NCBI GenBank assembly: GCA_031411575.1 | Contig: JANOBJ010000016.1 | Span: 1-48,711, forward strand | Origin: Betaproteobacteria bacterium | GTDB taxonomy: Bacteria; Pseudomonadota; Gammaproteobacteria; Burkholderiales; Burkholderiaceae_C | Reading direction: 5' to 3' | DNA: 48,711 nt | Shown here: positions 1 to 45,512 of the stretch, one piece after another | Position numbering within the stretch: the first letter of the stretch is position 1 | How the letters are laid out: the number at the start of each line of letters is the position of its first letter | Program-made: the position numbers and the translations under genes | Notes under the pieces: model-generated | The model's database searches: none | Told to the model about the DNA's origin: nothing | What the model saw: only the letters and a program-made list of their open reading frames with translations

Positions 1-2613
1 GACCGCTACCTGAAGGCGGTGGGTTACGCCACCAAATCCAAACGCGGCGGCTTGCCCAAGATGGTGTTGGTGGGTGACATTGCCGGCGACGACGCGGACG
101 CCGTGGCGCGCGCCACCTCCGAGGTGGTGCGCATCGCCAACTCGCGCAGCGGCGAGGGCTTCATTGCCATCAGCCCCGAGGCGCGCAAGAAATTCTGGCT
201 CGACCGCAAGCGCACGGCCGCCATCAGCAAGCACACCAACGCCTTCAAGATCAACGAGGACGTGGTGATTCCGCTGCCGCGCATGGGCGAGTACACCGAA
301 GGCATTGAGCGCATCAACATCGAGCTGTCGCTGCGCAACAAGATCGACCTCTGCGACGCGCTCGAAGCGTTCTTCACCCGTGGCAACCTGCCGCTGGGCA
401 AGCAGGACGACGCCAGCGAAATCCCCTCTGCCGAGCTGCTGGAAGACCGGGTGGCGCAAGCGCTGGACGTGGTGCGCGAGGTGCGGGCGCTGTGGCAGGG
501 CTGGCTGAACCACATTGACGCGCGGCCGGACGCCGGGCCGCCCCAAGGCCGGCCAGCCCCCTCGGGGGGCAGCGACCCACACGCAGTGGGGGAGCGTGGG
601 GGCTTTTTTGCTGCGCTACAGGACCACACCCTGCGCGCCAGCTGGAAGACGCAAATCCGAGCGCCGCTGCACAACATTTTTGCGGGCGGGGCGTTCCAGG
701 CCATCCTGGACGAGTGCACCGCCATTCACCAGCGCGTGCTCAAGGGCCGGGTCTGGGTGGCGCTGCACATGCACGCGGGCGACGGCAATGTGCACACCAA
801 TCTTCCGGTCAACAGCGACAACTACGAGATGTTGCAGACCGCCCACGAGGCGGTGGCGCGCATCATGAAACTGGCGCGCAGCCTGGACGGCGTGATTTCG
901 GGCGAGCACGGCATCGGCATCACCAAGCTCGAGTTTTTGACCGACGCCGAGCTGCAGCCGTTCACGGATTACAAGCAGAAGGTCGATCCGGAAGGGCGCT
1001 TCAACAAAGGCAAGTTGCTACGAAATAAAGAGCAACAGATGACCAGTGGGAGAGCACGAGAGGCCGATCTGGGTTCAAATCCGGGCCTTCTGGCTGATTT
1101 GACGAATGCCTACACACCGAGCTTCGGCCTGATGGGCCACGAGTCGCTGATCATGCAGCAGAGCGACATCGGCGCGATCGCCGACAGCATGAAGGACTGC
1201 CTGCGCTGCGGCAAGTGCAAGCCGGTGTGTGCCACGCACGTGCCGCGCGCCAACCTGCTGTACAGCCCGCGCAACAAGATTTTGGCCACCTCGCTGCTGA
1301 TCGAGGCCTTTTTGTACGAAGAGCAGACGCGCCGCGGCGTGTCGATCAAGCACTGGGAAGAGTTCGAGGACGTGGCCGACCACTGCACGGTGTGCCACAA
1401 ATGCCTGTCGCCCTGTCCGGTGAAGATCGATTTTGGCGAAGTGTCGATGAACATGCGCAACCTGCTGCGCAAGATGGGGCAGAAGTCGTTCCGCCCTGGC
1501 AACGCGGCAGCCATGTTCTTCCTGAATGCGACCAACCCCGAAACCATCAAGCTGATGCGCACGGCGATGGTGGACGTGGGCTTCAAGGCCCAGCGCCTGG
1601 CCAATGACTTCCTGCGGGGGCTGGCCCGGGCGCAGACCGCCAAGCCGCCGTCCACCGTGGGCAAGGCGCCGGTGAAGGAACAGATCGTTCACTTCATCAA
1701 CAAGAAAATGCCCAGTGGCCTGCCCAAGAAGACGGCGCGCGCGCTGCTCGACATCGAGGACAAGGACTACGTCCCGATCATCCGCAACCCCAAGGCCACC
1801 ACGGCCGAGACGGAGGCGGTGTTCTACTTCCCGGGCTGCGGCTCGGAACGGCTGTTCTCGCAGGTGGGGCTGGCCACGCAGGCCATGCTGTGGCATGCCG
1901 GCGTGCAGACGGTGTTGCCGCCCGGGTACCTCTGCTGCGGCTACCCGCAGCGCGGCAGCGGGCAGTTCGACAAGGCCGAGAAAATCATCACCGACAACCG
2001 GGTGCTGTTCCACCGCGTCGCCAACACGCTGAACTACCTGGACATCAAGACCGTGGTGGTGAGCTGCGGCACCTGCTACGACCAGCTGCAGGGCTACGAG
2101 TTTGAGAAGATCTTCCCGGGTTGCCGCATCATCGACATCCACGAGTACCTGCTGGAGAAAGGCATCACGCTCAACACCGCCGGTGGGTCCTACCTGTACC
2201 ACGACCCCTGCCACAGCCCGATGAAGCTGCAGGAGCCGATGAAGACCGTCAAGGCGCTGATGGGCGACCAGGTGCTGGAATCCAAGCGCTGCTGCGGCGA
2301 ATCGGGCACGCTGGGCGTGACGCGTCCCGACATCTCCACGCAAATTCGCTTCCGCAAGGAAGAAGAGCTGCAAAAGGACGCGGTGGCGCTGCGCGAACTC
2401 GGCGGCCTGGCGCCCAAGGACAACGTGAAAATCCTCACCAGCTGCCCGAGCTGCCTGCAGGGCCTGTCGCGCTACGGCAATGACCTGCAGAACGGGCTGC
2501 TGGAAGCCGATTACATCGTGGTCGAGATGGCCAGCCAGATTCTGGGCGAGAACTGGATGGGTGAGTACGTCGAGGCGGCCAATACTGGCGGCATCGAGCG
2601 GGTCTTGGTGTGA
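1..2613 (+). CDS. FAD-linked oxidase (GlcD-like) fused to Fe-S/CCG-domain (GlcF-like) oxidoreductase; 5' end outside window
   Basis: ORF track gives 19..2613, but the frame is open from nt 1. FAD-oxidase C-terminal motif 'GVISGEHGIGITKLEF'. Ferredoxin-type motifs 'CLRCGKCKPVC' and 'CTVCHKCLSPCP'. CCG-type Cys motifs ('FPGCGSE','HDPCH','SCPSC'). Carries two in-frame repeat insertions (521-613, 1015-1075). Confidence 0.85.
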   Translation, partial: DRYLKAVGYATKSKRGGLPKMVLVGDIAGDDADAVARATSEVVRIANSRSGEGFIAISPEARKKFWLDRKRTAAISKHTNAFKINEDVVIPLPRMGEYTEGIERINIELSLRNKIDLCDALEAFFTRGNLPLGKQDDASEIPSAELLEDRVAQALDVVREVRALWQGWLNHIDARPDAGPPQGRPAPSGGSDPHAVGERGGFFAALQDHTLRASWKTQIRAPLHNIFAGGAFQAILDECTAIHQRVLKGRVWVALHMHAGDGNVHTNLPVNSDNYEMLQTAHEAVARIMKLARSLDGVISGEHGIGITKLEFLTDAELQPFTDYKQKVDPEGRFNKGKLLRNKEQQMTSGRAREADLGSNPGLLADLTNAYTPSFGLMGHESLIMQQSDIGAIADSMKDCLRCGKCKPVCATHVPRANLLYSPRNKILATSLLIEAFLYEEQTRRGVSIKHWEEFEDVADHCTVCHKCLSPCPVKIDFGEVSMNMRNLLRKMGQKSFRPGNAAAMFFLNATNPETIKLMRTAMVDVGFKAQRLANDFLRGLARAQTAKPPSTVGKAPVKEQIVHFINKKMPSGLPKKTARALLDIEDKDYVPIIRNPKATTAETEAVFYFPGCGSERLFSQVGLATQAMLWHAGVQTVLPPGYLCCGYPQRGSGQFDKAEKIITDNRVLFHRVANTLNYLDIKTVVVSCGTCYDQLQGYEFEKIFPGCRIIDIHEYLLEKGITLNTAGGSYLYHDPCHSPMKLQEPMKTVKALMGDQVLESKRCCGESGTLGVTRPDISTQIRFRKEEELQKDAVALRELGGLAPKDNVKILTSCPSCLQGLSRYGNDLQNGLLEADYIVVEMASQILGENWMGEYVEAANTGGIERVLV
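521..613. repeat. GC-rich hairpin-bearing element D1, in frame inside the oxidase gene
   Basis: CCCCC-TC-GGGGGG (556-569), CCCAC-ACGCA-GTGGG (576-590), then GGGGGCTTTTTTG. Encodes 'RPDAGPPQGRPAPSGGSDPHAVGERGGFFA'. Confidence 0.55.
1015..1075 (+). repeat. Family-A repeat copy A0 (AT-rich palindromic core plus GC-rich tail), in frame inside the oxidase gene
   Basis: TTGCTACGAAATAAAGAGCAACAGATGACCAGTGGGAGAGCACGAGAGGCC aligns without gaps to A1 and A4. Encodes 'LLRNKEQQMTSGRAREA'. Confidence 0.8.
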
Positions 2614-2620
2614 TGTGAAA

Positions 2621-2700
2621 CACCCCCGACGCGCTTTCAGCGCCTCCCCGTCGAGGGGGCGCGACCAGCGGCCCGGCGAAGCCGGTTCCGCGTTCGCCCG
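2621..2700. repeat. GC-rich REP-like element D2 immediately after the oxidase stop
   Basis: GCGCCTCCCC-GTCGA-GGGGGCGC and CCGGC-GAA-GCCGG hairpins. The core CCCCGTCGAGGGGGCGCGACCA resembles D1 CCCCCTCGGGGGGCAGCGACCCA. Confidence 0.5.
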
Positions 2701-2764
2701 CGCAATGCATGGGTGGGCAAGCGTACTGTGCCGTTCACGGTAAACATCTGATCTGGAAGAAATC

Positions 2765-3178
2765 ATGGCAGGTTTGCAATCCGGCGCCCCGACGCCACAG
2801 TCGATCACCGCGCACAGCCAGTCGCGGGTACTGGAGGTGTCGTTTTCCGATGGCGCCACCTTCCGCATCCCGTTTGAGCTGATGCGTGTGTATTCGCCTT
2901 CGGCCGAGGTCCAGGGCCACGGCCCGGGGCAGGAGGTGCTGCAGACCGGCAAGCGCGAGGTCGAGCTGGCAGGGCTGGAGCCAGTGGGCAATTACGCGGT
3001 GCAGCCGACGTTTTCGGACGGGCATGACACCGGCATCTTTTCATGGGACTACCTGTATTTTCTGGGCTCGCAGCAGGACAGGCTGTGGTCCGACTACACC
3101 ACGCGGCTACAGGCGGCCGGGGTGGACCGCGACGCGCCGATGCCTGATAAGGGTGGCCACGCCTGCGCCAGCCACTGA
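2765..3178 (+). CDS. DUF971 (gamma-butyrobetaine hydroxylase-like N-terminal domain) protein
   Basis: 137-aa ORF with 'FSDG..F.IP.ELMRVYSPSAEV' and 'VGNYAVQPTFSDGHDTGIFSWDYLY', typical of the DUF971 proteins found upstream of ubiE in Burkholderiales. Confidence 0.7.
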   Translation: MAGLQSGAPTPQSITAHSQSRVLEVSFSDGATFRIPFELMRVYSPSAEVQGHGPGQEVLQTGKREVELAGLEPVGNYAVQPTFSDGHDTGIFSWDYLYFLGSQQDRLWSDYTTRLQAAGVDRDAPMPDKGGHACASH

Positions 3179-3247
3179 GTGGCCGCGCGTCGTCATGGTG
3201 GGCGGCGCACCAGCCCGCCAGGTGTTGGGCCAGCACCGGGCCGATAA

Positions 3248-3312
3248 TTGCTATAATTTTAATAGCAAACTATGACGAGAGGACGCGGACAACAGGCGCT
3301 TTTTCATCAGAT
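3248..3312 (+). repeat. Family-A repeat copy A1 (intergenic, upstream of ubiE)
   Basis: TTGCTATAATTTTAATAGCAAACTATGACGAGAGGACGCGGACAACAGGCGCTTTTTCATCAG. The 7-bp arms TTGCTAT/ATAGCAA are perfect. Confidence 0.85.
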
Positions 3313-3387
3313 TTCCGACAAATTCACTGATTTGGTGCGGGTTTGTCGCTGCATGCACCATGTTTGGCTCTAGCATTGTGACTGTCC

Positions 3388-4119
3388 ATGAGTACCACGC
3401 ATTTCGGCTACCAGACCGTTGACGAACGCGAGAAGGCGCGCCATGTGCGCGGCGTCTTTGATTCGGTCGCGCCCAAGTACGACCTGATGAACGACTTGAT
3501 GTCGGCCGGCCTGCACCGTGCATGGAAGGCCTACACCGTGATGGTGGCTAACGTCGCCGAGGGCGACGAGGTGCTCGACATCGCCGGCGGCACCGGCGAC
3601 CTGGCGCTGGCGTTCGCCAAAAAGGTCGGTGCCAGCGGCCGCGTCGTGCACACCGACATCAACGAAGCCATGCTGCGCACCGGGCGCGACCGCCTGCTCG
3701 ACGCGGGCGTGACGCTGCCCACCACGGTGTGTGATGCCGAGCGCCTGCCGTTCGCCGACAACCAGTTCAACCTGGTCAGCGTGGCTTTTGGCCTGCGCAA
3801 CATGACCCACAAGGATGTGGCGCTGGCCGAAATGTGCCGCGTGCTCAAGCCCGGCGGCAAGCTGCTGGTGCTGGAGTTTTCCAAGGTGGCCAAGCCGCTG
3901 CAAAAAGCCTACGACTGGTATTCGTTCAAGGTGCTGCCGCAACTGGGCCGGCTGGTGGCGGGCGACGACGCCAGTTACCGCTACCTCGCCGAATCCATCC
4001 GCATGCATCCCGACCAGGACCAGCTCAAATCCCTCATGCAAAAAAGTGGTTTTGGCCATGTGGACTATCACAACCTCTCTGGCGGAATGGTGGCATTGCA
4101 TGTTGGAATCAAGTGCTGA
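3388..4119 (+). CDS. ubiE: Ubiquinone/menaquinone biosynthesis C-methyltransferase
   Basis: 'FGYQTV...[26 protein letters not shown]' N-terminus and SAM motif '[12 protein letters not shown]'. Sits in a ubi cluster. Confidence 0.95.
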
Positions 4120-4148
4120 GTGGGTTCAATCCAATTGATGGAGGCAAG

Positions 4149-5168
4149 ATGAAAACGTTTTTCCTGATGGTGCTGGTCAGCGTGCTGACGTTCGCCAGCC
4201 TCGACGCGGACGCCGCACGGCGCCTGGGCGGCGGTAAATCCGTCGGCAAACAGTCCAACAACGTGACGCAGCGCGAGGCGACGCCACCGGCTGCGCCGGG
4301 CACGCCACAAGCCGCGCCCAACAGCGCTGCCAAGGCCGCTCCGGCCGCCGGCGCGGCGGGCACCGCTGCCGCCACCAAGCGGCCGTGGGGCGCCATGCTG
4401 GGCGGCCTGGCAGCCGGTCTTGGCCTGGCCTGGCTGGCCAGCAGCCTCGGTCTGGGCGAGGCCTTTGGCCAGATCATCATGTTCGCGCTGCTCGCCATGG
4501 TGGTGATGGCGGTCATCGGCTACTTCATGCGGCGCCGTGCGCAGGGCAACAGCGGCAATGGTGGCCTGGCCTACCAGGGCGCTGGCGGCTCGGGCTCACC
4601 GAAAGACTTTTCGCAAAGCCATTACAACCCGGCCAACGTTGGCAACGACGCCTCGGCCCGGCCCTGGGAGCGCAACACCACAGCGTTTGAGGCCAGTCCC
4701 CAAACCCCCGCCACGGGTGCCACGGGGCGCAGCACCGGCTCGATTATCGGCTCGGCCCTGCGCGGTTCGCCCTCGTGGAGCGTGCCGGAGGGCTTCGACA
4801 CCGACGGTTTCCTGAGTGCGGCCAAACGCAACTTCGTGACGCTGCAAGATGCCTGGGACCGCTCCGACATCAGCACCCTGCGCTCGATGATGACCGACGA
4901 CATGGTCGGCGAGATCAAGTCGCAGCTGGCCGAGCGCGAGACGCACACCGACGGCCAGCCCAACAAGACCGACGTGGTGATGCTCGAGGCGCAGCTGCTT
5001 GGCATCGAAGAGCTGGGCGACGGTTACCTCGCCAGTGTCGAGTTCTCGGGGATGATCCGCGAGCAGCCTTCGGCCGGCCCGAGCCCGTTCCGCGAGGTCT
5101 GGAACATGACCAAACCCAAGTCCGGCTCCGCGGGCTGGCTGGTAGCCGGGGTGCAGGCACTGCAATAA
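4149..5168 (+). CDS. Tim44-like domain protein (signal peptide, Ala/Gly-rich linker, TM segment, C-terminal Tim44-like domain)
   Basis: Start moved to the ATG at 4149 ('MKTFFLMVLVSVLTFASLDADA'). The 5' part of ORF 3834..5168 overlaps ubiE. Position between ubiE and ubiJ is typical for betaproteobacteria. Confidence 0.75.
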   Translation: MKTFFLMVLVSVLTFASLDADAARRLGGGKSVGKQSNNVTQREATPPAAPGTPQAAPNSAAKAAPAAGAAGTAAATKRPWGAMLGGLAAGLGLAWLASSLGLGEAFGQIIMFALLAMVVMAVIGYFMRRRAQGNSGNGGLAYQGAGGSGSPKDFSQSHYNPANVGNDASARPWERNTTAFEASPQTPATGATGRSTGSIIGSALRGSPSWSVPEGFDTDGFLSAAKRNFVTLQDAWDRSDISTLRSMMTDDMVGEIKSQLAERETHTDGQPNKTDVVMLEAQLLGIEELGDGYLASVEFSGMIREQPSAGPSPFREVWNMTKPKSGSAGWLVAGVQALQ

Positions 5169-5228
5169 CCCCGGCCCATGCTCCGCCCGGCAAGGGCGGG
5201 GCATTCATTCGGTAAATAATGGGGGACT

Positions 5229-5924
5229 ATGGCAACACCGTCCCCCTTTGCATTTCTGGAACAGCTGGTCGAGCGCGTGGGCAGCAGTCTGCAACCGCCG
5301 GTCTGGCTGGTGGACGAAGTCCAGCACCGCGCCATCCTGTTCGTCAACCACGTGCTGATGCAGGAAAGCGAGGCCACCAGCCGGCTTTCAAGGCAAAAAG
5401 GCCGTGTGGTGCACGTCCAGTGGCGTTCTTACGCTATTAAATTAGTAGCAACTCCAGCCGGACTGGTGGACCGTGCGTCCTCCGCAGCGGTGGCCGACCT
5501 GACGCTCACCGTGACCGACGAATCCCCCTTCAGCCTGGCCCAGGCGGCGCTGCGTGGCGACAAGCCGGGCGTCCGGATCGAGGGCGATGTGCAGCTCGCC
5601 GCTGAAATCAACTGGCTGGTGGACAACGTGCGCTGGGACGCCGAGGAAGACCTGGCGCGCGTGCTGGGTGACGCCCCCGCGCATGCGCTGGGCGACGCGG
5701 TGCGGCGCCTGGCGGACGGCCTGCGCTTGTTTCTCAGCACGCGGCAGGCCCCCGCCGACGCGGGCGGCAGCGGGGCTGCGGGCGCCGGGTCGGCCCCGGC
5801 AACCGGCTTTGGACCGGTGCCTTCCACAGGGTTCGGGCAGAGCCCCCCGGCCGGTTCCGCACAGGCCCCTTCGACAGGCTCGGGACAGGCTCCGTCGGCA
5901 GGCTCCGGGCAGGCGTCCGCATGA
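5229..5924 (+). CDS. ubiJ: SCP2-domain ubiquinone biosynthesis accessory factor
   Basis: Lies between the Tim44-like gene and ubiB with an ATGA overlap to ubiB. '[12 protein letters not shown]' SCP2-like C-terminal region. Contains repeat A2 and a tandem octapeptide tail. Confidence 0.7.
5385..5452 (-). repeat. Family-A repeat copy A2, in frame inside ubiJ
   Basis: Reverse complement is TTGCTACTAATTTAATAGCGTAAGAACGCCACTGGACGTGCACCACACGGCCTTTTTGCC. Encodes '...[15 protein letters not shown]' using rare AT-rich codons. Confidence 0.75.
5795..5915 (+). repeat. Five tandem 24-nt units (REP-like CCTTCGACAGGCTCGGGACAGGC) forming the UbiJ C-terminal tail
   Basis: Encoded octapeptides are PATGFGPV / PSTGFGQS / PPAGSAQA / PSTGSGQA / PSAGSGQA. 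The opposite strand reads the widespread 'PEPVEG' REP translation. Confidence 0.75.
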
Positions 5925-7483
5925 CGCGGCTGCTGCGCGGCACCTTCATCGTCTGGATCGTCCTGCGCTACGGGCTGGACGAACTGGTTCTCACCAGCTT
6001 CAAGAAGCCGTGGCTGGCCGTGGTGGCGCGGATCGTCTCGGTCGGGCGCAACCTGAAGGCGCCGCGTGGCCAGCGCCTGCGCGAGGCGCTCGAGCGGCTC
6101 GGGCCGATCTTCGTCAAGTTCGGCCAGGTGCTGTCCACCCGGCGCGACCTGCTTCCCACCGACATTGCCGACGAACTGGCGCGGCTGCAGGACAACGTGC
6201 CGCCGTTTGACTCGGCGATCGCGGTGGCCACCATCGAGCGCGCGTTTGGCCGCAAGGTGGACGACATCTTCACCCAGTTCGAGCGCGAGCCGGTGGCCAG
6301 CGCATCCATTGCCCAGGTGCACTTCGCGCGTCTCAAGAACCGTGATGGCCAGGAGCGCGATGTCGCCATCAAGGTGCTGCGGCCCGGCATGCTGCCGGTG
6401 ATCGACAAGGACCTGAGCCTGATGCGCATGATGGCCGGCTGGGTCGAAAGCCTGTCGGCCGACGGCAAGCGGCTGAAGCCGCGCGAGGTGGTGGCCGAGT
6501 TCGACAAGTACCTGCACGACGAGCTCGATCTGGTGCGCGAGGCCGCTAGCGCCGCCCAGCTGCGCCGCAACATGGCCGGCCTGAACCTGGTGCTGATTCC
6601 CGAGATGTTCTGGGATTTCTGTCACCCCGAGGTGATCGTGATGGAGCGCATGGTCGGCATTCCGATCAGCCATACCGAGCGGCTGGTGGCAGCGGGCGTG
6701 GACCGCAAGCAGCTGGCGCGCGACGGTGTCACGATCTTCTTCACCCAGGTGTTCCGCGACGGGTTTTTCCATGCCGACATGCACCCCGGCAACATCCAGG
6801 TGAGCATCGATCCGGCCTCGTTCGGCCGCTACATCTCGCTCGATTTCGGCATCATCGGCACCCTGACCGCGGTCGACAAGGAGTACCTGGCGCAGAACTT
6901 CACCGCGTTTTTCCGGCGCGACTACAAGCGTGTGGCCGAACTCCACATCGAGTCGGGCTGGGTGCCACCGAACACCCGGGTGGACGAGCTGGAGTCGGCC
7001 GTGCGCGGCGTCTGCGAGCCGTACTTTGACCGGCCGTTGAAGGAAATCTCGCTCGGCATCGTGCTGATGCGGCTGTTCCAGACCTCGCGCCGATTCGAGG
7101 TGGAAATCCAGCCCCAGCTGGTGCTGCTGCAAAAGACGCTGCTCAACATCGAGGGCCTGGGCCGCGAGCTGGACCCGGATCTGGACCTCTGGGCCACCGC
7201 CAAGCCTTTCCTGGAAACCTGGATGCTGGAGCAGGTTGGCCCGCAGAAGCTGCTGGACCAGTTGCGCGACGAGGCGCCGCGCTACGCCAAGCTGCTGCCC
7301 GAGTTGCCGCGCCTGCTGGCCGAGTACCTGAAGCAGCGACCGTCCGACATCCGCAACGATCTGGACCTGCTGATCAAGGAGCAGCGGCGCACCAACAAGC
7401 TGCTGCAGGGCATCATCTACGGTGGTATTGGTTTTGCTTTGGGATTGGTCGCGATGCAAATCCTGCTGCGGGTGCGGCTTTGA
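5921..7483 (+). CDS. ubiB: Ubiquinone biosynthesis regulatory protein kinase (ABC1/UbiB family)
   Basis: '[20 protein letters not shown]', 'ASIAQVH.A', '[11 protein letters not shown]', and C-terminal TM helices. Confidence 0.95.
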
Positions 7484-7572
7484 AGCCAAAACCGGCCGAT
7501 TTCGCCCGATAATCCGCGGCAATTGGCGGGCACCCAAGCCCCGGGAACACCTGAACTGCGTGGAGCTTTGAG

Positions 7573-9027: not shown

Positions 9028-9151
9028 GGGCTGGATGACACCCCTGCCCACGCGGGGTGCCCACACCCGCTGCAGGAAAGCTGCAGGGCTTGAAAAGCCG
9101 CTGCCCGCCTATAATTGAAGGCTTTGCAGCCGGATCACCCCCTCCCATACC

Positions 9152-9496
9152 ATGCCTATCTATGCCTATCGATGCGAGTCCTGCGGCCTGGCCAAGGATG
9201 TGCTGCAGAAAATCTCCGATGCCACGCTGACGGATTGCCCGTCTTGTGGCGCACCCACCTTCAAGAAGCAGGTCACGGCAGCTGGCTTCCAGCTCAAGGG
9301 CTCGGGCTGGTACGCCACTGATTTCCGCAACGGTTCGGGCGCGCCCGCTGCAGCCCCTGCCGCCGAGGGCGAATCCGCGAAAGCGGCCGAACCGTCGGCC
9401 AAGCCCGCTGACGGATCACCTGCTCCCACGACCACGCCCGTCACCACACCCACCCCCGCCGTGACCAAAAGCGCGTCGCCACCTGCCGCGGGCTGA
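9152..9496 (+). CDS. FmdB-family zinc-ribbon regulatory protein with Ala/Pro-rich tail
   Basis: 'MPIYAYRCESCG....CPSCG' double CxxC zinc ribbon. Confidence 0.8.
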   Translation: MPIYAYRCESCGLAKDVLQKISDATLTDCPSCGAPTFKKQVTAAGFQLKGSGWYATDFRNGSGAPAAAPAAEGESAKAAEPSAKPADGSPAPTTTPVTTPTPAVTKSASPPAAG

Positions 9497-9499
9497 AAG

Positions 9500-10132
9500 A
9501 TGGGGATGAATGCATTGCGCAAATGGCTGGTGTCGGGCCTGCTCGTGATCGTGCCGGTCGCGATCACCGTGTGGGTGCTCGAATGGATCATCAGCACGCT
9601 GGACAAGACGCTGTTGATCCTGCCGGGTGGCTGGCACCCCGACAAATTGATCGGGTTCCACATCCCGGGTTTTGGCGTGCTGCTGGCATTTGCCATCCTG
9701 CTGGTGGTGGGTGCGGTGGCCAGCAACTTTTTCGGCCGCAAGCTGGTGCACTGGTGGAATGCGCTGCTGCACCGCATTCCGGTGGTTCGCTCCATCTACT
9801 CCGGCGTCAAGCAGGTTTCGGACACGCTGTTCTCCGAGACCGGCAACGCCTTTCGCAAGGCCGTGCTGGTGCAATGGCCACGCGAAGGTGTCTGGACCAT
9901 TGCCTTCGTCACGGGTGTGCCCGGCGGCGACACCGCCAATCACCTGACGGGCGACTACCAGAGCGTGTACGTGCCGACCACCCCCAACCCCACCGGTGGC
10001 TATTTCGTGATGCTCCGCAAGAGCGAGTGCATCGAGCTCAAGATGAGCGTGGACGAGGCTCTCAAGTACATCGTGTCGATGGGCGTGGTCGTTCCTGGCG
10101 GCCCGGCCAACCCCAACCTCTTCAACAAATAA
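9500..10132 (+). CDS. DUF502 membrane protein
   Basis: Two N-terminal TM helices plus the 'TPNPTGGY' motif characteristic of DUF502. Confidence 0.75.
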
Positions 10133-10175
10133 GGCCTGCCTCGGGCACGCTGATACCTCACGCTGGAAGATTTGT

Positions 10176-11984: not shown

Positions 11985-12160
11985 TATTGCGCAAGTCCGA
12001 GCCGGTTTGAAGGTCGTTTAAGTTTCACTTAAGCTGTGAAACGGACAGTAACGCAGATGGTGGTCGCCTTGAGAACGAACATGACCCGTGGGAGCTTGGC
12101 TGCCGGTGTGTGTACGTTGCAGGGTGCAACGCCTCCATCTGACTGCGCCACTGGATTGGT

Positions 12161-12460: not shown

Positions 12461-12486
12461 GCCGGCCGCACTGCGGCAGAATGAAA

Positions 12487-12510: not shown

Positions 12511-12511
12511 C

Positions 12512-13731: not shown

Positions 13732-13732
13732 G

Positions 13733-14965: not shown

Positions 14966-15009
14966 GCACCAGCCATGCAGCAGGCGGGCGTGGCGCACGG
15001 GGCAGGGCG

Positions 15010-16041: not shown

Positions 16042-17804
16042 GGCGCTTCGCCGCCCTGTTCAGCGAACTCGACAGCACCACCTCGACCAACGCCAAGGTG
16101 GCGGCGCTGCAGCGCTACTTTGCCGGCGCTGACGCCGCCGACGCGGCCTGGGGGGTGTACTTTTTGTCGGGCGGCAAGCCACGCCAGGTGGTGAAAACGG
16201 CCCAGTTGCGCGCGCTGGCCACCGAGGCGGCGGGCATCGAGGACTGGCTGTTCGAGGAGTGCTACCAGGCGGTGGGTGACCTGGCCGAGACCATCGCGCA
16301 CATCCTGCCGACCGAGGGCGAGCCGACGGATGTGCCACTGGCCGAATGGATTGAGCAGCGGCTGCTGCCCCTGCGCGGCCTGCCGGGCGACGAGGTGGCG
16401 CAGCGCGTGCGCGGCTACTGGCGCGAGCTGGATGCGCCGGGCCGCTTTTTGCTGACCAAGCTGGTGGGTGGCGGTTTCAGGGTGGGGGTGAGCAAGCTCC
16501 TGGTGCAGCGCGCGCTGGCGGCGCACGCGGGCATCGACGCCAAGCGCGTGGCGCAGCGGATGATGGGCTATACCGATGGCAAAAGCCTGCCAAGCGCTAC
16601 TAAATATAGAGCATTGATTGACGAGGGGACGGGCACTACAGGCACTTTTGATGATGAAGGGCAGCCCTACCCGTTCTTTCTGGCGCATGCACTCGACAAG
16701 GGCCTAGAAGCCGCGCCCGGCGCGCTCGAAGCCCGGCTCGGCGCGGTGTCGGACTGGCTGGTGGAGTGGAAATACGACGGCATCCGGGGCCAGATCGTGC
16801 GGCGCGGCAGCGGCACGGCGTCGCAGGTCTGGGTCTGGTCGCGCGGCGAAGAGCTGGTGACCGAGCGCTTTCCCGAGCTGGTGGCGCTGGCGCAGGCGCT
16901 GCCCGACGGCACCGTACTGGACGGCGAAATCGTGGTGTGGCTGCCCGACGCGGACGGTCCGGCGCCGTTTGCGCTGCTGCAGCAGCGCATCGGCCGCAAG
17001 ACGCTCGGCCGCAAGGTGCTGGCCGATGCGCCGGTCAGCTTCATCGCCTACGACCTGCTGGAGCAGGGCGGCCAGGACATTCGCGCGTTGCCCCAGCACG
17101 AGCGCCGTGCCCGGCTGGAAGCGGTGCTGGCCGGCAGCGCGTTCCGCCTGTCGCCGCGGGTGCAGCGCGAATCGTGGGCGGCGCTGGCTGAACTGCGGGC
17201 CGAGTCGCGGGCGCGCGGGGTCGAAGGCTTCATGCTCAAAGCTCTGACCAGCGCCTACGGCACTGGCAGGCAAAAAAGGGGTCAGAGCCCGAATTTGGCT
17301 GCGCCAATATCGGGGTCCGACCCCATTTTTGCCTGGTGGAAATGGAAGATCGACCCCATGACCATCGACTGCGTGCTGATCTACGCCCAGGCCGGGCACG
17401 GCCGCCGCGCCTCGGTGTACACCGACTACACCTTTGCCGTCTGGAGCCGCCCGCCGGTGAGTGCTGCGGAGGCTGAGTCGGTGCTGGACGCGATTGCCCG
17501 GAAAGAGCCCGCCGAACCCGGCCAGCTTCAACTAGTCGCCTTCGCCAAAGCCTATTCCGGCCTGACCGACGAGGAATTCAAGGCGGTGGACTCGGTGATC
17601 CGCAAGACCACGCTGGAGAAGTTCGGCCCGGTGCGCAGCGTGCGGCCGTCGCTGGTGTTTGAGCTGGGTTTTGAAGGCATCAACCGCAGCCCGCGCCACA
17701 AAAGCGGCATTGCGGTGCGTTTTCCACGCATGCTGCGCATCCGGACTGACAAGCCGCTGGCCGGGGCCAATACCCTGCAAGACCTCGAATTGCTACTAAA
17801 ATAA
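16038..17804 (+). CDS. ATP-dependent DNA ligase (ligase-associated DNA damage response type)
   Basis: Motif I 'EWKYDGIR', motif IV 'EGFMLK', motif V 'WWKWK'. The 5' part of ORF 15090..17804 is an out-of-frame overlap with the exonuclease gene. Contains repeats A3 and B in frame, and the stop codon lies in repeat A4. Confidence 0.9.
   Translation: MRRFAALFSELDSTTSTNAKVAALQRYFAGADAADAAWGVYFLSGGKPRQVVKTAQLRALATEAAGIEDWLFEECYQAVGDLAETIAHILPTEGEPTDVPLAEWIEQRLLPLRGLPGDEVAQRVRGYWRELDAPGRFLLTKLVGGGFRVGVSKLLVQRALAAHAGIDAKRVAQRMMGYTDGKSLPSATKYRALIDEGTGTTGTFDDEGQPYPFFLAHALDKGLEAAPGALEARLGAVSDWLVEWKYDGIRGQIVRRGSGTASQVWVWSRGEELVTERFPELVALAQALPDGTVLDGEIVVWLPDADGPAPFALLQQRIGRKTLGRKVLADAPVSFIAYDLLEQGGQDIRALPQHERRARLEAVLAGSAFRLSPRVQRESWAALAELRAESRARGVEGFMLKALTSAYGTGRQKRGQSPNLAAPISGSDPIFAWWKWKIDPMTIDCVLIYAQAGHGRRASVYTDYTFAVWSRPPVSAAEAESVLDAIARKEPAEPGQLQLVAFAKAYSGLTDEEFKAVDSVIRKTTLEKFGPVRSVRPSLVFELGFEGINRSPRHKSGIAVRFPRMLRIRTDKPLAGANTLQDLELLLK
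16593..16656 (+). repeat. Family-A repeat copy A3, in frame inside the DNA ligase gene
   Basis: GCGCTACTAAATATAGAGCATTGATTGACGAGGGGACGGGCACTACAGGCACTTTTGATGATG. Encodes 'SATKYRALIDEGTGTTGTFDD'. Confidence 0.8.
17271..17331. repeat. Family-B palindromic MITE-like element (GGGGTCAGAGCCC ... GGGGTCCGACCCC), in frame inside the ligase gene
   Basis: CAAAAAAGGGGTCAGAGCCCGAATTTGG-ctgcg-CCAATATCGGGGTCCGACCCCATTTTTG, with imperfect ~25-nt inverted arms. Resembles the 'GGGGTCAGA...TCTGACCCC' elements common in Burkholderiales. Confidence 0.7.
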
Positions 17805-17850
17805 TAGCAAACTATGACCGCTGGATGAGGACCACAAGCCAATTACAGGG
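17790..17850 (+). repeat. Family-A repeat copy A4, spanning the ligase stop codon
   Basis: TTGCTACTAAAATAATAGCAAACTATGACCGCTGGATGAGGACCACAAGCC. The ligase ends TTG CTA CTA AAA TAA within the core. Confidence 0.85.
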
Positions 17851-17877
17851 ATAATCATTCACTGGTACGATCATCGG

Positions 17878-19043: not shown

Positions 19044-19936
19044 AGCCCGCGCCCGTCCGGGGGCTGGCGCACGCCGCCGCAGCCGGGCCACTGCTGGCCG
19101 GCTGCGACTTCTCCAGCCGCCCCACGCGCAAAAAACCCATCGTTTTAGCCCTGGGGTCCGCATCCAGTGGTCGTTTGATGCTATTAAAAATAGAGCAATT
19201 TGACAGCCTGGAGGGCTTTGGCGGCTGGCTGCGCGCGCCCGCTGACTGGGTGGGTGCGTTTGATTTTCCCTTTGGCCTGCCGCGCGAGCTGGTCGAACAG
19301 CTGGGCTGGCCGACCGCGTGGGAAGCCTGCATGCGCCACTACGCGGGCTTGAGCCGCGAGGAGATTCGCGCCACCTTTGCCGCGTTTTGCGACGCCCGGC
19401 CAGTGGGAGGCAAATTCGCCCACCGCGCCACCGACCGGCCGGCCGGCGCCAGCCCGTCGATGAAATGGGTCAACCCGCCGGTGGCCTACATGCTGCACGC
19501 CGGGGTGCCGCTGCTGCTCGACGCGGGCGTGCACCTGCCCGGCCTGCACCCGGGCGAGCCCGCCAACCAGGACGCTGCCGGCCAGCCGCGCCGGGTCGCG
19601 CTGGAAGGCTACCCCGGCCTGCTGGCGCGGCAAATCCTGGGCAACCGGTCGTACAAAAGCGACGACAAGGCCAAGCAGACGCCAGACCGCCTGATCGCGC
19701 GCAAGGACGTGGTGACCGCGCTGGAGCACGGCCAGGCGCCGCTGGTGCAGCCGCTCGGCCTGCGTCTCAAACTCAGCCACGCGCAGCGCGACGCCCTGAT
19801 TGACGACGCCAGCGGCGACCGGCTGGACGCCGTGCTGTGCCTGGTGCAGGCGGCCTGGGCGCAGGCCCGGGGCGCACCGCGCTACGGGCTGCCCGAGCAG
19901 GTCGATCCGCTCGAAGGCTGGATCGTGGCTGCCTGA
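19040..19936 (+). CDS. DUF429 (predicted RNase H-fold) protein; start uncertain
   Basis: 'LLAGCDFSS.P....PIV.A' and 'FDFPFGLPRELV' are DUF429-like. A TTG at 19040 overlaps the BLUF stop (TTGA). The alternative ATG at 19178 lies inside repeat A5. Confidence 0.6.
   Translation: MKPAPVRGLAHAAAAGPLLAGCDFSSRPTRKKPIVLALGSASSGRLMLLKIEQFDSLEGFGGWLRAPADWVGAFDFPFGLPRELVEQLGWPTAWEACMRHYAGLSREEIRATFAAFCDARPVGGKFAHRATDRPAGASPSMKWVNPPVAYMLHAGVPLLLDAGVHLPGLHPGEPANQDAAGQPRRVALEGYPGLLARQILGNRSYKSDDKAKQTPDRLIARKDVVTALEHGQAPLVQPLGLRLKLSHAQRDALIDDASGDRLDAVLCLVQAAWAQARGAPRYGLPEQVDPLEGWIVAA
19128..19198 (-). repeat. Family-A repeat copy A5, inside the 5' region of the DUF429 gene
   Basis: Reverse complement is TTGCTCTATTTTTAATAGCATCAAACGACCACTGGATGCGGACCCCAGGGCTAAAACG. 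Confidence 0.8.
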
Positions 19937-19937: not shown

Positions 19938-20007
19938 GTGTTTTAGGCATCAAATGTGCCTGTTGTCGTTGTCCTGTGGTCATAGTATGCTATTAATAAT
20001 ATAGCAA
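19938..20007 (-). repeat. Family-A repeat copy A6 (starts 1-2 nt after the DUF429 stop; lies between convergent genes)
   Basis: Reverse complement is TTGCTATATTATTAATAGCATACTATGACCACAGGACAACGACAACAGGCACATTTGATGCCTAAAACACC. Confidence 0.85.
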
Positions 20008-20040
20008 TTGGTCGGGGCGCCGCAACCGGGCGCCGGGACG

Positions 20041-41602: not shown

Positions 41603-44059
41603 GTGCCCGAAACGGCGTCTGTCGAGGCCTGGTTTGCCACGCGCGGCTGGCAGCCGTTCGCCTTCCAGCGCGAGGTCTGGCAGGCCATCGCCCAAGCCCG
41701 CAGCGGCCTGCTGCACGCCACCACCGGCTCGGGCAAAACCTACGCGGTGTGGCTGGGCATGCTGGCCGCGTTGCTGCGTCAGCGGCCCCCGGCCAAGGCG
41801 GCCGAGCCGCTGCGCGTGGTCTGGCTCACACCGATGCGCGCGCTGGCGGCCGACACGGCGCGCGCCCTGACTGGCCCGCTGGCCGATCTGGCGCCCGGCT
41901 GGACGCTGGGCCTGCGCACCGGCGACACGCCCAGCGCCGAGCGCGCGCGCCAGGACCGGCGCTTTCCCACGGTGCTGATCACCACACCCGAGTCGCTGAG
42001 CCTGTTGCTGGCACGTGAATCGGCGCACGAGGAACTGGCAGGCGTGCAGTACCTGGTGGCCGATGAGTGGCATGAGCTGCTGGGCAGCAAGCGCGGAGTG
42101 CAGGTGCAGCTGGCGCTGGCCCGGCTGCGGCGGTTCAACCCTTCGCTGTGCGTCTGGGGTTTGAGCGCCACGCTAGGAAATTCAGAGCAAGCTATGACCA
42201 TTCTGTGCGGACAAGCGGCCGATTTTGCTCCAAAACAGGTGCCACGGCTGGTGCAGGGCCGGATCGACAAGGCGCTCGTCATCGACACGCTGATCCCGCC
42301 CGATCCGGGCAAGTATTCGTGGGCCGGCCACCTGGGCGCGCGCATGCAGCAGCCGGTGGTGGACGAGATCGAGAGCGCGTCCACCACGCTGGTGTTCACC
42401 AACACCCGCAGCCAGGCCGAGATCTGGTACCAGTTGCTGCTGCAGCTCAAGCCCGAGTGGGCCGGCGTGGTCGCGCTGCACCACGGCAGCCTCGACAAGG
42501 AGGTTCGCGAGTGGGTCGAGGCGGGCCTGAAGGAAGGGCGCCTCAAGGCCGTGGTCGCCACCTCGTCGCTCGACCTGGGCGTGGATTTTCTGCCGGTCGA
42601 GCGGGTGCTGCAGATCGGCTCGGCCAAGGGCGTGGCGCGGCTGCTGCAGCGGGCCGGGCGCAGCGGGCACGCGCCCGGGCGCGCCAGCCGCATCACGCTG
42701 GTGCCCACCAACACGCTGGAACTGATCGAGGCGGCGGCGGCGCGGCGCGCGGCGCAGGCCGGACGCATCGAAAAGCGCGACGGCCCCGACAAGCCGCTCG
42801 ATGTGCTGGTGCAGCACCTGGTGACGGTGGCGCTGGGCGGTGGTTTCGAGCCCGATGCACTATTTGCCGAGGTGCGCAGCGCCTGGTGCTATCGCGCGCT
42901 CACGCGTGCCGAATTCGACTGGGCGCTGGCGTTTTGCGAGCGCGGCGGCGAGAGCCTGACCGCCTACCCCGACTACCACCGCATCCAGCGCGACGAGGCC
43001 GGCATCTACCGCGTGCCGGACCGCGCCATCGCGCGCCGGCACCGGCTGTCGATCGGCACCATCGTGAGCGACGCGTCGATGCAGGTGAAGTACCTGAGCG
43101 GCGGCAAGATCGGCTCGATGGAGGAGAGCTTCATCGCGCGGCTGCGCAAGGGCGACTGCTTTGTCTTTGCCGGCCGCCTGCTCGAATTCATCCGGGTACA
43201 GGACATGGTGGCCTATGTGAAGAAGGCCGAGAAAAAGCGCGGCACCGTGCCCACCTGGCAGGGCGGCAAGATGCCCCTGTCCACCGAGATGGCTGAGGCC
43301 GTGCTCGAGCTGATGCAGCAGGCCAGCCAGGGCGACTTTTTCGAGCCTGAGCTGCGGGCTGCGCGGCCGATGCTCGAAACCCAGGCCCGCCTGTCGAAAA
43401 TCCCCACGCCCGCCACGCTGCTGGTGGAGCAATTCACCTCGCGCGAGGGGCACCACCTGTACGTCTATCCGTTCGCCGGGCGCCAGGTGCACCTGGGGCT
43501 GGCCAGTCTGCTGGCATGGCGGCTGGCGCGCGACCACCCCAACACCTACAGCCTCTCGGTCAACGACTACGGCTTTGAGCTGCTGGGCGCGCAACCGATC
43601 GACGCGGCGCCGCTGCTCGACCAGTCGGTGCTCACGCCCGACGGCCTGCTGGACGATGTGCTGGCTTCGCTCAACTCATCAGAACTGGCCCAGCGGCGGT
43701 TCCGCGAGATTGCGCGGGTGGCCGGCCTGGTGTTCACCGGTTACCCGGGCTCGCCCAAGAGCATGAAGCAGGTGCAGGCGTCCAGCGGGCTGTTTTTCGA
43801 GGTGTTCCGCAAGTACGACCGCCACAACCTGCTGCTGAACCAGGCCGAGCGCGAGGTGCTGAGCCAGGAGCTGGAGATGGCGCGGCTCACCGCCACCTTG
43901 AAGCGCATGGCCGGCCAGCGGGTCGAGTTCGTCGTGCTGCGGCATCCCAGCCCGCTGTCGGTGCCGCTGATGGTGGAGCGGCTGCGCGAAAAACTCACCA
44001 CCGAGCAGTTGTCGACCCGGCTGGACCGTATCCTTCGGGCCATGGAGAACAATAACTGA
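41603..44059 (+). CDS. lhr: Ligase-associated DNA damage response DEXH-box helicase (Lhr-like)
   Basis: 'WQPFAFQREVW', Walker A 'HATTGSGKT', 'VADEWHEL', 'ATSSLDLGVDF', 'QRAGRSGH'. GTG start at 41603 chosen ('MPETASVEAWF'); a TTG at 41552 is possible. Confidence 0.85.
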   Translation: MPETASVEAWFATRGWQPFAFQREVWQAIAQARSGLLHATTGSGKTYAVWLGMLAALLRQRPPAKAAEPLRVVWLTPMRALAADTARALTGPLADLAPGWTLGLRTGDTPSAERARQDRRFPTVLITTPESLSLLLARESAHEELAGVQYLVADEWHELLGSKRGVQVQLALARLRRFNPSLCVWGLSATLGNSEQAMTILCGQAADFAPKQVPRLVQGRIDKALVIDTLIPPDPGKYSWAGHLGARMQQPVVDEIESASTTLVFTNTRSQAEIWYQLLLQLKPEWAGVVALHHGSLDKEVREWVEAGLKEGRLKAVVATSSLDLGVDFLPVERVLQIGSAKGVARLLQRAGRSGHAPGRASRITLVPTNTLELIEAAAARRAAQAGRIEKRDGPDKPLDVLVQHLVTVALGGGFEPDALFAEVRSAWCYRALTRAEFDWALAFCERGGESLTAYPDYHRIQRDEAGIYRVPDRAIARRHRLSIGTIVSDASMQVKYLSGGKIGSMEESFIARLRKGDCFVFAGRLLEFIRVQDMVAYVKKAEKKRGTVPTWQGGKMPLSTEMAEAVLELMQQASQGDFFEPELRAARPMLETQARLSKIPTPATLLVEQFTSREGHHLYVYPFAGRQVHLGLASLLAWRLARDHPNTYSLSVNDYGFELLGAQPIDAAPLLDQSVLTPDGLLDDVLASLNSSELAQRRFREIARVAGLVFTGYPGSPKSMKQVQASSGLFFEVFRKYDRHNLLLNQAEREVLSQELEMARLTATLKRMAGQRVEFVVLRHPSPLSVPLMVERLREKLTTEQLSTRLDRILRAMENNN

Positions 44060-44562
44060 TGCGAAAGCTGCTCGTCATTGCTATAATATTAATAGCAAAC
44101 AATGTCCACGCGACAGGCACGTGGAGCGGAATCGTCACAAAAATATCAGATGGCGACACGCTTTGGGTCAAGCCGGCGCCCGACCAGCGCCCCCGCAAGG
44201 TGCGGCTGCAGGGCATCGACGCCCCCGAGATCTGTCAGGCCTGGGGCGCAGAGGCGCGTGACGCGCTGGCGCAGCGCGTGCTGCGCCGCCGAGTCACCAT
44301 CGACACGCGCCGCAACGACGACTACGGCCGCGCACTCGCTCGCATCGAGCTGGATGGTGAAGATGTGGCCGGCTGGATGGTGCAACAAGGTCACGCCTGG
44401 TCGTACCGCTACCGCCGCGATGATGGCCCGTATCTGGCGCAACAGACCGCGGCGCGTGCGGCGCGGCGCGGCCTGTTTGCCGACAGCCAGGCTGAGCGTC
44501 CGCGCGATTTTCGCCAGCGCCACGGCCCGTGCACGCTGCCGGTTGCCGGAGCCAGCCGATGA
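44059..44562 (+). CDS. Secreted thermonuclease (SNase)-family nuclease
   Basis: 'SDGDTLWV', 'VRLQGIDAPE', 'DDYGRALARIELDGEDV'. The signal peptide 'MRKLLVIAIILIANNVHA' is encoded by repeat A7. 1-nt overlap with the lhr stop. Confidence 0.82.
   Translation: MRKLLVIAIILIANNVHATGTWSGIVTKISDGDTLWVKPAPDQRPRKVRLQGIDAPEICQAWGAEARDALAQRVLRRRVTIDTRRNDDYGRALARIELDGEDVAGWMVQQGHAWSYRYRRDDGPYLAQQTAARAARRGLFADSQAERPRDFRQRHGPCTLPVAGASR
44078..44121 (+). repeat. Family-A repeat copy A7, encoding the nuclease signal peptide
   Basis: TTGCTATAATATTAATAGCAAACAATGTCCACGCGACAGGCAC. The tail is shorter and more diverged. Confidence 0.75.
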
Positions 44563-45467
44563 TTGACCTGGCCTGCGTCGGCCATGCGGCCGTGGACCAC
44601 CACTTCGAGATCGAGGCGTTCCCGACGCGCCCGACCAAGACACCCGCCACGGCGTACCACCACATCGTTGGCGGCATGGCCGCCAACGCGGCGGTGGCAG
44701 CCACGCGGCTGGGCGGGCGCGTCCGGCTGCTCGGCCGGGTCGGCGACGACGAGGCGGGCCGGTTTGTGCGAGCTGAACTGGCGGCACTGGGCGTGGCGGA
44801 CGTTCAGCTGGAGGCAGTGGCCGGCGCCGCAACCTCGGTCTCGTCGGTGGTGGTGGACGCGCACGGCGAACGCCAGGTCTTCAACCACCGCGGCAGTGCG
44901 CTCACGCGCGCGCATCCGCTCAATGTGGTGCAACTGGCGGGCGCACGGGCGCTGCTGGTTGATCCGCGCTGGTCGGCCGGCGCCACTGCCGCGCTGCGCT
45001 GGGCCCGCGCGCAAGGTATTTTCTCGATGCTGGACGCCGACGTGGCCCCCCTGGCTGACTTGCAGGCGATGGTGCCGCTGGCGCAGTGGGCGGTGTTTTC
45101 AGAGCCGGGGCTGGCTGCGTTTGCGCCGGGCGCGCCGCAGGAAGATGCCTTGCACCTGGCGGTGCAGTCAGGCGCGGCCGTGGCGATGGTCACACTGGGC
45201 GAACGCGGCGTGCTGTGGACGCACGGCGCCAGCAAGGGTGGGCTGATGCAGCGGGTGCCCGGCTACCGGGTGAAGGCGACCGACACCACCGGCGCCGGTG
45301 ACGTGTTCCATGCCGCTCTGGCGCTCGCGCTGGGCCGGGGCCAGGCGGAGGACGCGGCGGTGCGTTGGGCTTGTGCCGCGGCCGCACTCAAGTGCAGCCG
45401 CGGGCCCGGCGTGCTGGGCACCCCGACGGCACCCGAAATCGCCGAATTCATGACCAAATTCGCCTGA
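44559..45467 (+). CDS. PfkB-family carbohydrate/ribokinase-like kinase
   Basis: 'GGMAANAA.A..RLGG' and PfkB signature 'DTTGAGDVFHAA'. ATGA overlap with the nuclease gene. Confidence 0.85.
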   Translation: MIDLACVGHAAVDHHFEIEAFPTRPTKTPATAYHHIVGGMAANAAVAATRLGGRVRLLGRVGDDEAGRFVRAELAALGVADVQLEAVAGAATSVSSVVVDAHGERQVFNHRGSALTRAHPLNVVQLAGARALLVDPRWSAGATAALRWARAQGIFSMLDADVAPLADLQAMVPLAQWAVFSEPGLAAFAPGAPQEDALHLAVQSGAAVAMVTLGERGVLWTHGASKGGLMQRVPGYRVKATDTTGAGDVFHAALALALGRGQAEDAAVRWACAAAALKCSRGPGVLGTPTAPEIAEFMTKFA

Positions 45468-45512
45468 TGTGCAGGCGGGTTGGTCATTTGTTGCTATTAT
45501 ATTAATAGCATT
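45450..45512 (-). repeat. Family-A repeat copy A8, overlapping the last codons and stop of the PfkB kinase gene
   Basis: Reverse complement is ATGCTATTAATATAATAGCAACAAATGACCAACCCGCCTGCACATCAGGCGAATTTGGTCA. Confidence 0.8.

Follow-up and report, generated by a model that had tools for sequence, protein, structure and literature searches.

The 48,711-nucleotide contig JANOBJ010000016.1 of a Betaproteobacteria bacterium (assembly GCA_031411575.1; 65% GC), in the following referred to as the window, carries ten copies of a dispersed repeat that consists of an AT-rich palindrome followed by a one-sided tail. Our analysis firmly identifies this repeat as an ancient, chromosome-bound sequence of the Comamonadaceae that persists at orthologous sites, and it equally firmly identifies most of the copies located within genes as overprints on native coding segments rather than as insertions into them. 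The repeat is best read neither as a set of recent insertions of MITEs (miniature transposable elements with inverted repeats) nor as a promoter. We favour, with a probability of roughly 0.4, an explanation in which an old chromosomal repeat of the Comamonadaceae branch around Rhodoferax, Polaromonas and Acidovorax, akin to the repetitive extragenic palindromic (REP) sequences, is renewed through ectopic transfer of short sequence tracts, a process that also copies it onto compatible sequence; this mechanism, like any function that the repeat may have, is one that we infer.

The repeat unit and its copies

A search of the window for the core TTGCTAT-N7-ATAGCAA with at most three mismatches returns eight sites, against 0.41 expected, and in a shuffle control on this core pattern none of 100 shuffles attained eight. 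The nine copies reported in the initial annotation (A0 to A8) are all confirmed as members of a genuine dispersed family and can be aligned without gaps over about 58 nt; A3, which lies outside the eight-site core count, is present at position 16594 just as it had been described. A profile trained solely on A1, A4, A6 and A8, the four copies that are either intergenic or placed at the end of a gene, recovers those that overlap coding sequence, with E-values of 7e-10 for A5, 2e-8 for A7, 1e-6 for A3, 1.2e-6 for A2 and 9e-6 for A0. The same profile detects a tenth copy at positions 42170-42227 on the plus strand (E = 1.2e-5), and the total of nine copies given earlier has to be amended for this reason. 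Over 58 ungapped nucleotides, the ten copies exhibit a mean pairwise identity of 0.60 (range 0.45-0.79), while random pairs of 58-mers drawn from the window reach 0.27 +/- 0.06 with a maximum of 0.50. The copies are dispersed in both orientations, and their gene context, as assigned by Pfam and open reading frame (ORF) analysis, is summarised in Table 1.

Table 1. Position, strand and genetic context of the ten repeat copies in the window
Copy	Position	Strand	Context
A0	1015..1080	+	In frame; linker of a YdiJ-like oxidoreductase between the FAD-oxidase_C and 4Fe-4S domains
A1	3246..3311	+	Intergenic; precedes ubiE by about 140 nt and lies upstream of the promoter-like box of this gene
A2	5389..5453	-	Antisense within ubiJ; over strands of the SCP2 domain (22 residues)
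A3	16591..16656	+	Sense; ATP-dependent DNA ligase, P-x-A-x-x-F/Y-x-x-L-I helix and the linker that follows
A4	17787..17851	+	Provides the final four codons and the stop codon of the ligase gene; upstream of folE
A5	19136..19201	-	Antisense; N-terminal region of a DUF429-like gene (PIVLALGSASSGRLMLLKIEQF)
A6	19945..20010	-	Intergenic; in the gap that separates the convergent DUF429-like and SulP genes
Tenth copy	42170..42235	+	Sense; lhr, over helicase motif III (SATLGNSEQAMTILCGQAADFA)
A7	44076..44135	+	Core in frame, forming the hydrophobic core of the signal peptide of a secreted SNase (IAIILIANNVHA)
A8	45449..45513	-	Between convergent PfkB-kinase and BON-domain genes; end of the tail over the last PfkB codons

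When 41 copies from many genomes are aligned on the core, the 5' edge of the unit is sharp and falls at TTGCTA, while the 3' edge is fuzzy and falls near GGCCGATTTTG. The conserved unit consequently measures about 57-66 nt, which corrects the 60-70 nt given at first; it begins with the AT-rich palindrome and continues into a tail of about 40 nt that ends in GGCCGATTTTG. The AT-rich core stands out because the window has a GC content of 65%. That the core is a palindrome holds true, but its outer form, initially written as TTGCTAT...ATAGCAA, is more accurately TTGCTA-N9-TAGCAA, since the fifth arm pair is frequently C/A. The 5' half of the tail occurs in lineage-specific versions: an ATGACC type is found in the window, in Rhodoferax and in Polaromonas, and a hairpin type, GCGCTTGATGGATAAGCGC, is found in Acidovorax, Simplicispira and a UBA9957 bin. 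In an RNAalifold analysis of the 41 copies, the core hairpin was the sole consensus structure. A structured RNA was rejected as an explanation because no conserved structure extends past this hairpin and the folds of individual copies are mutually discordant.

Overprinting of native coding segments

Seven of the nine copies had initially been described as overlapping coding sequence in frame. This is borne out, and with the copy in lhr the count rises to eight of ten. Five copies are internal to genes and in frame (A0, A2, A3, A5 and the tenth copy), and A4, A7 and the tail of A8 overlap gene ends.

For four of the five internal copies, orthologous genes possess a segment of the same length at the position of the repeat. 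The stretch of the DNA ligase under A3 has an identical length in 120 of 120 close orthologues and likewise in 143 diverse orthologues (40-65% identity), which carry the P-x-A-x-x-F/Y-x-x-L-I helix under the core; archaeal ligase structures align straight through this segment with no indel. Twelve UbiJ orthologues align one-to-one across A2, and the SCP2 match in Pfam accommodates the region without extra residues. The segment under A5 (PIVLALGSASSGRLMLLKIEQF), which we take to represent the beta2-beta3 strands of an RNase-H-like fold, can be aligned one-to-one and without an indel to the DUF429-like proteins of loci L064, L065 and L148. The Lhr copy over motif III (GLSATLGNSEQAMTIL) corresponds one-to-one to the Lhr protein of M. 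smegmatis (5v9x) and to that of L147. At A7, the A-I-x-L-I-A motif of the signal peptide is the repeat core read in frame; among 27 aligned orthologues (54-94% identity) it belongs to the majority consensus and is visible in most of the sequences. For A3, A2, A5, the Lhr copy and A7, the residues under the repeat hence recur at equivalent positions in orthologues from distant genera, and the origin by insertion that had been entertained for the genic copies is, for most of them, not borne out.

The overprints have left their mark on codon usage. Codons with A or T in the third position account for 12-14 of the 22-23 codons in each intragenic copy (five copies), compared to 11-18% of the codons in the rest of the respective gene (P from 2e-7 to 5e-6); A7, the copy in the signal peptide, has 10 such codons out of 20, compared to 22% (P = 0.006). 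Orthologues free of the element encode the homologous residues in GC-rich codons. The rare codons CTA, AAA, ATA and CAA of the A5 site are common to the window and to Polaromonas, in both of which they follow the pattern CTA-xxA-AAA-ATA-GAG-CAA. This codon anomaly is an imprint at the level of the DNA.

A0 is the only intragenic copy that changes the length of its host gene: it adds 22 codons (66 nt) relative to outgroups, which read GKLLEGADL at this position. Other Comamonadaceae possess 9-26 extra codons at the same site. Several of them have the core there, and in several lineages this core contains the same stop-removing changes, CTA CGA AAT ... GAG. The linker of the YdiJ-like protein as a whole, measured between GRFNxGK and AYTPSF (window positions 994-1125 and loci L066-L129), varies from 22 to 48 residues across the Comamonadaceae, and all three outgroups that have the linker (L120, L122 and L129) are at the 22-residue minimum. 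A separate length difference concerns ubiJ, whose product has a C-terminal tail of low complexity, about 60 residues long and enriched in Gly, Ser, Ala and Pro (window positions 5730-5924); the orthologue in Polaromonas is shorter by 49 residues and lacks most of this tail.

Persistence at shared chromosomal sites

A scan for the pattern, in which each species was represented by one genome, yielded at least 62 loci. Among the matches listed, nearly all belong to Comamonadaceae, and the genera represented are Rhodoferax, Polaromonas, Acidovorax, Paracidovorax, Simplicispira and Verminephrobacter. The positions of the copies are shared between lineages. Within 20 kb, the Polaromonas locus L065 contains exactly three sites that resemble the core, namely the A3, A4 and A5 sites; L146 has cores at the A3, A4 and A6 sites, and L147 at the A3, A4, A6 and A7 sites. 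Close relatives have cores at the A3, A4 and A5 sites (L063) or at the A7 and A8 sites (L150), and a core at the A1 site upstream of ubiE is present in L068, L082, L072 and L079. No cores were found at these shared sites in L064 and L148, both of which have retained the gene order. The fate of the palindrome varies from site to site: at A4, four lineages retain the arms GCTAY/RTAGC, with a stop codon (TAA, TAG or TGA) that shifts in position, and at A3 at least one arm is broken in every lineage.

The repeat is bound to the chromosome. The 2.9 million viral contigs of IMG/VR provided one match and the plasmid collections none, and a phage or plasmid origin was rejected on the basis of these numbers. 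The sole viral match, at positions 7569-7595 of the IMG/VR contig L149, conforms to the core-plus-ATGAC pattern and may represent either a prophage fragment from Comamonadaceae or a chance occurrence.

Within the window, the copies are unevenly distributed. A cluster of genes for Mtr-type multihaem cytochromes and for ccm cytochrome maturation occupies 17 kb (about 21.8-39.1 kb), has a lower GC content and exhibits a strong AT skew. It is inserted between the SulP and sulfatase genes, which adjoin each other in L146 and L148. Judged by these features, the cluster looks like a horizontally acquired island for extracellular electron transfer. It contains none of the copies, and the remaining 31 kb or so of the window contain all ten. 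One ORF of the Mtr cluster, encoding 799 amino acids (positions 28358-30757), has no Pfam match; by its position, the product could be an MtrB-like outer-membrane porin partner.

The question of promoter activity

The initial annotation had raised the possibility that the repeat serves as a portable weak sigma-70 promoter (TTGCTA, 17 nt, TATGAC). This hexamer geometry is indeed found in the best-kept copies, and A1 and A4 are oriented towards ubiE and folE. The region that was scanned (900-20100) includes seven copies, however, and not a single sigma-70-like call fell on any of them, because their -10 element lacks the final T. The placement of four copies is unfavourable for a promoter as well, since A6 and A8 lie between convergent genes and A2 and A5 are antisense inside genes. 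Moreover, ubiE has a conserved TTGTCG...TAGCAT box of its own, located downstream of A1 and hence nearer to the start codon, and this box is kept in relatives that lack the repeat core, for instance in L087, L090 and L091. The idea of a portable promoter is thereby left without support, and we regard it as hardly credible.

The ubiE box merits description in its own right. It lies at window positions 3335-3387, consists of TTGTCG and TAGCAT separated by about 17-20 nt, and ends about 10 nt before the start codon; a spacing this small points to a leader that is very short, if there is one at all. The box is conserved in many relatives (L068, L080, L086, L087, L090, L091 and L108). Two other types of regulatory site were rejected for the repeat itself. 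The reverse complement, TGGTCATAGTTTGCT, upon inspection provides a GG-N9-GC arrangement in place of the GG-N10-GC that is canonical for a sigma-54 promoter, and the likeness to an OxyR/LysR box (CTAT-N7-ATAG) is only partial, with a copy number and a tail that do not befit a regulator site.

Proposed ectopic sequence transfer and its rivals

According to the explanation that we favour, the copies would persist at the same chromosomal sites across genera and would be renewed by short-tract, non-reciprocal transfer from many other copies. Such a transfer might proceed by ectopic gene conversion or by templated patch repair, seeded by the palindrome together with partial prior similarity. The same process would now and then overwrite tolerant coding sequence without altering its length, and selection on the host protein would then determine which motif positions survive, leading for example to a change from TAG to GAG or to the breakage of one arm. 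Whole-unit insertion would occur too, as it has done in the YdiJ-like linker. The intergenic copies would most likely behave in a REP-like manner, as a weak hairpin at 3' ends or between cistrons, or as a binding site for a protein.

Several observations are consistent with such a homogenisation. The YdiJ site has a shared ancestral core, but the 5' half of the tail is of the ATGACC type in the window versus the GCGCTTGATGG type in L087 and L093; the latter type matches the intergenic copies of Acidovorax and Simplicispira. Similarly, A3 and A6 of the window have ACAGGCAC-TTTGATG in common, and the copies of L146 have GGGACT. UbiJ orthologues without a core agree with the 61-nt consensus at 24-29 of its 56 specified positions, including 18-19 of the 34 in the tail, and the window sequence agrees at 41 of 56. 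The Lhr protein of L147 already has the TLGNxxQAM sequence, encoded by GC-rich codons, and it is in the window that this stretch is recoded with A/T-ending codons. Sites with some prior similarity, such as those in UbiJ and Lhr, have thus moved towards the motif, and we count this in favour of homogenisation. To the explanation as a whole we also credit the homology of all ten copies, the spread of the family, its recurrence at shared sites in several genera, the lack of indels at four intragenic sites, the A/T-ending codons, the retained arms of A4, the near-confinement to native chromosomal DNA and the one insertion of 66 nt.

A number of points weigh against this explanation. In a global test of the tails for concerted evolution, with an equivocal outcome, mean identity between copies from the same genome but different sites is 0.606, exactly the value for copies from the same site in different genomes, with 0.557 for copies that share neither; and the 3' half of the A0 tail looks ancestral and not homogenised to the type of the window. 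Conversion of the RecA type normally requires near-identical stretches longer than those available here. The orthologue in L064, which is free of the element, exhibits no prior similarity at the A5 site (15 of 56 positions), and the core of this site is present in the window and in L065 but absent from L147, the sister lineage of L065, and from L146, a distribution that requires either losses or independent gains. The phylogeny of the lineages, as judged from protein identities among six of them, is nearly star-like, and the direction of gain or loss relative to the element-free L064 and L148 is therefore not fixed. No conversion tract linking a donor and a recipient was directly seen, and we know of no cognate enzyme.

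The main rival holds that the repeat is a functional or 'driven' motif. A trans-acting factor would read the palindrome and the tail, and sites would be created and kept by point mutation under selection or molecular drive; the factor could be a DNA-binding protein or a machine for DNA uptake or repair, and the tail 'dialects' would follow the factor of each lineage. The location of copies in place, free of indels, in conserved coding sequence agrees with this proposal, as do the retention of rare A/T-ending codons across genera, the conservation of the A4 arms despite a moving stop codon, and the drift of already compatible sites towards the motif. It would also account for the absence of copies from the Mtr/ccm island and from plasmids, their near-absence from viral collections, and for the fact that entire clades (L064 and L148) are devoid of the motif at all shared sites. 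We nevertheless consider this rival somewhat doubtful, as a motif of about 60 nt far exceeds any known uptake or binding motif, and the sharp 5' edge of the block and the one whole-unit insertion of 66 nt also speak against it. Isolated half-sites are not enriched either: ATAGCAA occurs seven times in the window against 0.93 expected, but always within the palindromes, and outside the known copies there are three occurrences of TGCTAT and none of ATAGCA, as compared to about 5.8 expected for a hexamer on both strands. An enrichment of half-sites like that of DNA uptake sequences (DUS) was accordingly rejected. Between the window and the close relative L063, which diverge by 3.7% overall, A3 differs by 15%, A5 by 13% and A4 by 4.6%; since the values for A3 and A5 are above the average, turnover or decay fits better than purifying selection on the genic copies, and the broken arms of the A3 site in every lineage point in the same direction. 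Sequence-specific DNA uptake coupled to natural competence is, to our knowledge, not established for Comamonadaceae. A bolder reading, which we deem unlikely, envisions an active mechanism that would write a 'self' motif of about 60 nt, in the dialect of the respective lineage, onto the chromosomes of Comamonadaceae, including conserved coding segments, and without changing their length. Candidate writers would be templated patch replacement from single-stranded DNA, from RNA or from other copies, or a bias in uptake or repair.

A classical non-autonomous mobile element, either a MITE or an element resembling the Rickettsia palindromic elements (RPEs), inserted in frame so that the genic copies represent ancient and harmless insertions, is improbable in our judgement. 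The 22-codon insertion into the YdiJ-like linker at a domain boundary, with lineage-specific indels afterwards, is what such an element would produce, and the sharp 5' boundary of the unit and the dispersal of the family in both orientations are in keeping with it. A7 is, in addition, flanked by the 6-nt direct repeat TCGTCA (window positions 44072-44137), and excision of the 60 nt in between leaves the in-frame sequence MRKLLVTKISDGDT; this duplication is probably due to chance, because the AIxLIA motif is common to many orthologues. Direct repeats of at least 4 nt are missing from the flanks of the other nine copies, a test that is limited by the fuzzy 3' edge. There are no terminal inverted repeats, as the 5' and 3' ends of the unit are not complementary and the sole pairing resides in the 5' core, and no transposase is encoded in the 48.7-kb window. 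Above all, the segments under four of the five intragenic copies have counterparts of unchanged length in orthologues that lack the element, in distant homologues and among solved structures. These alignments without indels refute in-frame MITE insertion as a general account and leave A0 as the only copy that it explains.

Relation to known repeat families

The family had not been recognised at the outset, and our comparisons agree with this assessment. Across the window, Rfam gave no hit at the gathering score, and over A4-A6 a search at E <= 5 gave none of relevance; a known RNA family was rejected given that no covariance model matched. The resemblance to REP sequences and to their composite forms (bacterial interspersed mosaic elements, BIMEs, and REPINs) lies in the format of short dispersed palindromic units that are often found past the 3' ends of genes or between convergent genes. 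In enterobacteria and pseudomonads, REPs occur in hundreds of copies, and their locations are conserved among relatives but their sequences are species-specific. This combination led to the classical proposal, reportedly put forward by Higgins et al. in 1988, that REPs evolve by gene conversion. REPs are GC-rich imperfect palindromes of 20-40 nt that bear a GTAG or CGTC tag, lie by definition outside genes and are associated with RAYT transposases. In contrast, the palindrome described here is AT-rich in a genome of 65% GC, has a one-sided tail of 40 nt and is situated in coding sequence in half of its copies; the RTAGC that might be likened to a REP tag sits inside the stem.

The uptake signal sequences (USS) of Pasteurellaceae, the DUS of Neisseriaceae and the HIP1 sequences of cyanobacteria accumulate in coding DNA without indels, distort codon choice and occur in both orientations. 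They are scarce in recently acquired DNA and form lineage 'dialects', and inverted pairs of DUS serve as hairpins after genes. The unit studied here is similar to USS and DUS in being found in place in coding DNA and in being depleted from acquired DNA, be it the Mtr/ccm island, viral or plasmid DNA. It differs in that USS, DUS and HIP1 comprise 8-12 nt, with USS reaching about 30 nt if their flanks are counted, and are enriched singly, whereas the present unit measures about 60 nt, its half-sites are not enriched, and at least one whole unit was inserted. The dRS3 and NIME units of Neisseria, ATTCCC-N8-GGGAAT, are present in hundreds of copies and flank variable repeat units. They resemble our core in format, with short inverted arms around a spacer of 7-9 nt, but dRS3 elements are intergenic sites of recombination and phage integration with an unrelated sequence, and we know of no description of coding overprints for them.

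The RPEs are found in frame within unrelated housekeeping genes, are ancient, and occupy the same positions in related species (PMC10969869). The repeat reported here is like them in its in-frame placement in unrelated housekeeping genes and in the sites that it shares among relatives. An RPE, however, spans about 100-150 bp and adds a peptide to its host protein, whereas only one of our five intragenic copies adds residues and the others replace native codons one-for-one. Among repeats of related bacteria, the BRE elements have a length of 75-91 bp and a GC content of 69%, read TTTGCCGCGGGCCGC...GGGGGCCTTTTT and are often organised in tandem arrays (Hot et al., 2011; PMC3110155); they have been reported in Polaromonas, Rhodoferax, Acidovorax, Delftia and Verminephrobacter (PMC3110155). 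The genera in which the two repeats occur overlap, and some BRE copies reside wholly within coding sequences (PMC3110155). An identity of the two was rejected, since the supplementary BRE sequences are GC-rich and have no similarity to our unit (PMC3110155). No description of the unit, nor anything relevant to the phenomenon, was found in the searchable literature, a comparison that does not extend to the MITEs of Polaromonas JS666 (Mattes et al., 2008).

A second element in the ligase gene

The DNA ligase gene harbours a second, unrelated mini-element in frame at window positions 17268-17335. An inverted repeat, imperfect and about 19 nt long (AAAAAAGGGGTCAGAGCCC ... GGGGTCCGACCCCATTTTT), encloses 21 nt, and the element extends the protein by about 15 residues (RGQSPNLAAPISGSDPIFA) for which neither archaeal ligases nor the orthologue P0002, which is 92% identical, have a counterpart. 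Neither the rest of the window nor any of the 149 loci retrieved contains a second copy of this mini-element.

Implications

Short dispersed repeats of bacteria are usually treated as intergenic insertions. The unit described here is superimposed codon-for-codon on a helix of a DNA ligase, on motif III of a helicase, on SCP2 strands of UbiJ and on the N-terminal region of a DUF429-like protein. A practical consequence is that intragenic copies can be mistaken for MITE insertions or for gene boundaries during annotation. The absence of the repeat, in turn, marks recently acquired DNA, here the Mtr/ccm island.

Should an active mechanism indeed write a 'self' motif onto these chromosomes, it would constitute a previously undescribed mode of repeat propagation and a new source of clustered amino-acid changes in housekeeping proteins. 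If either ectopic sequence transfer or a drive at the level of the motif is at work, then it would represent a mutational force that reshapes conserved proteins in tracts and not point-wise. A repeat spreading in this manner could also supply functional parts, such as the signal peptide of a secreted nuclease with its A-I-x-L-I-A core.

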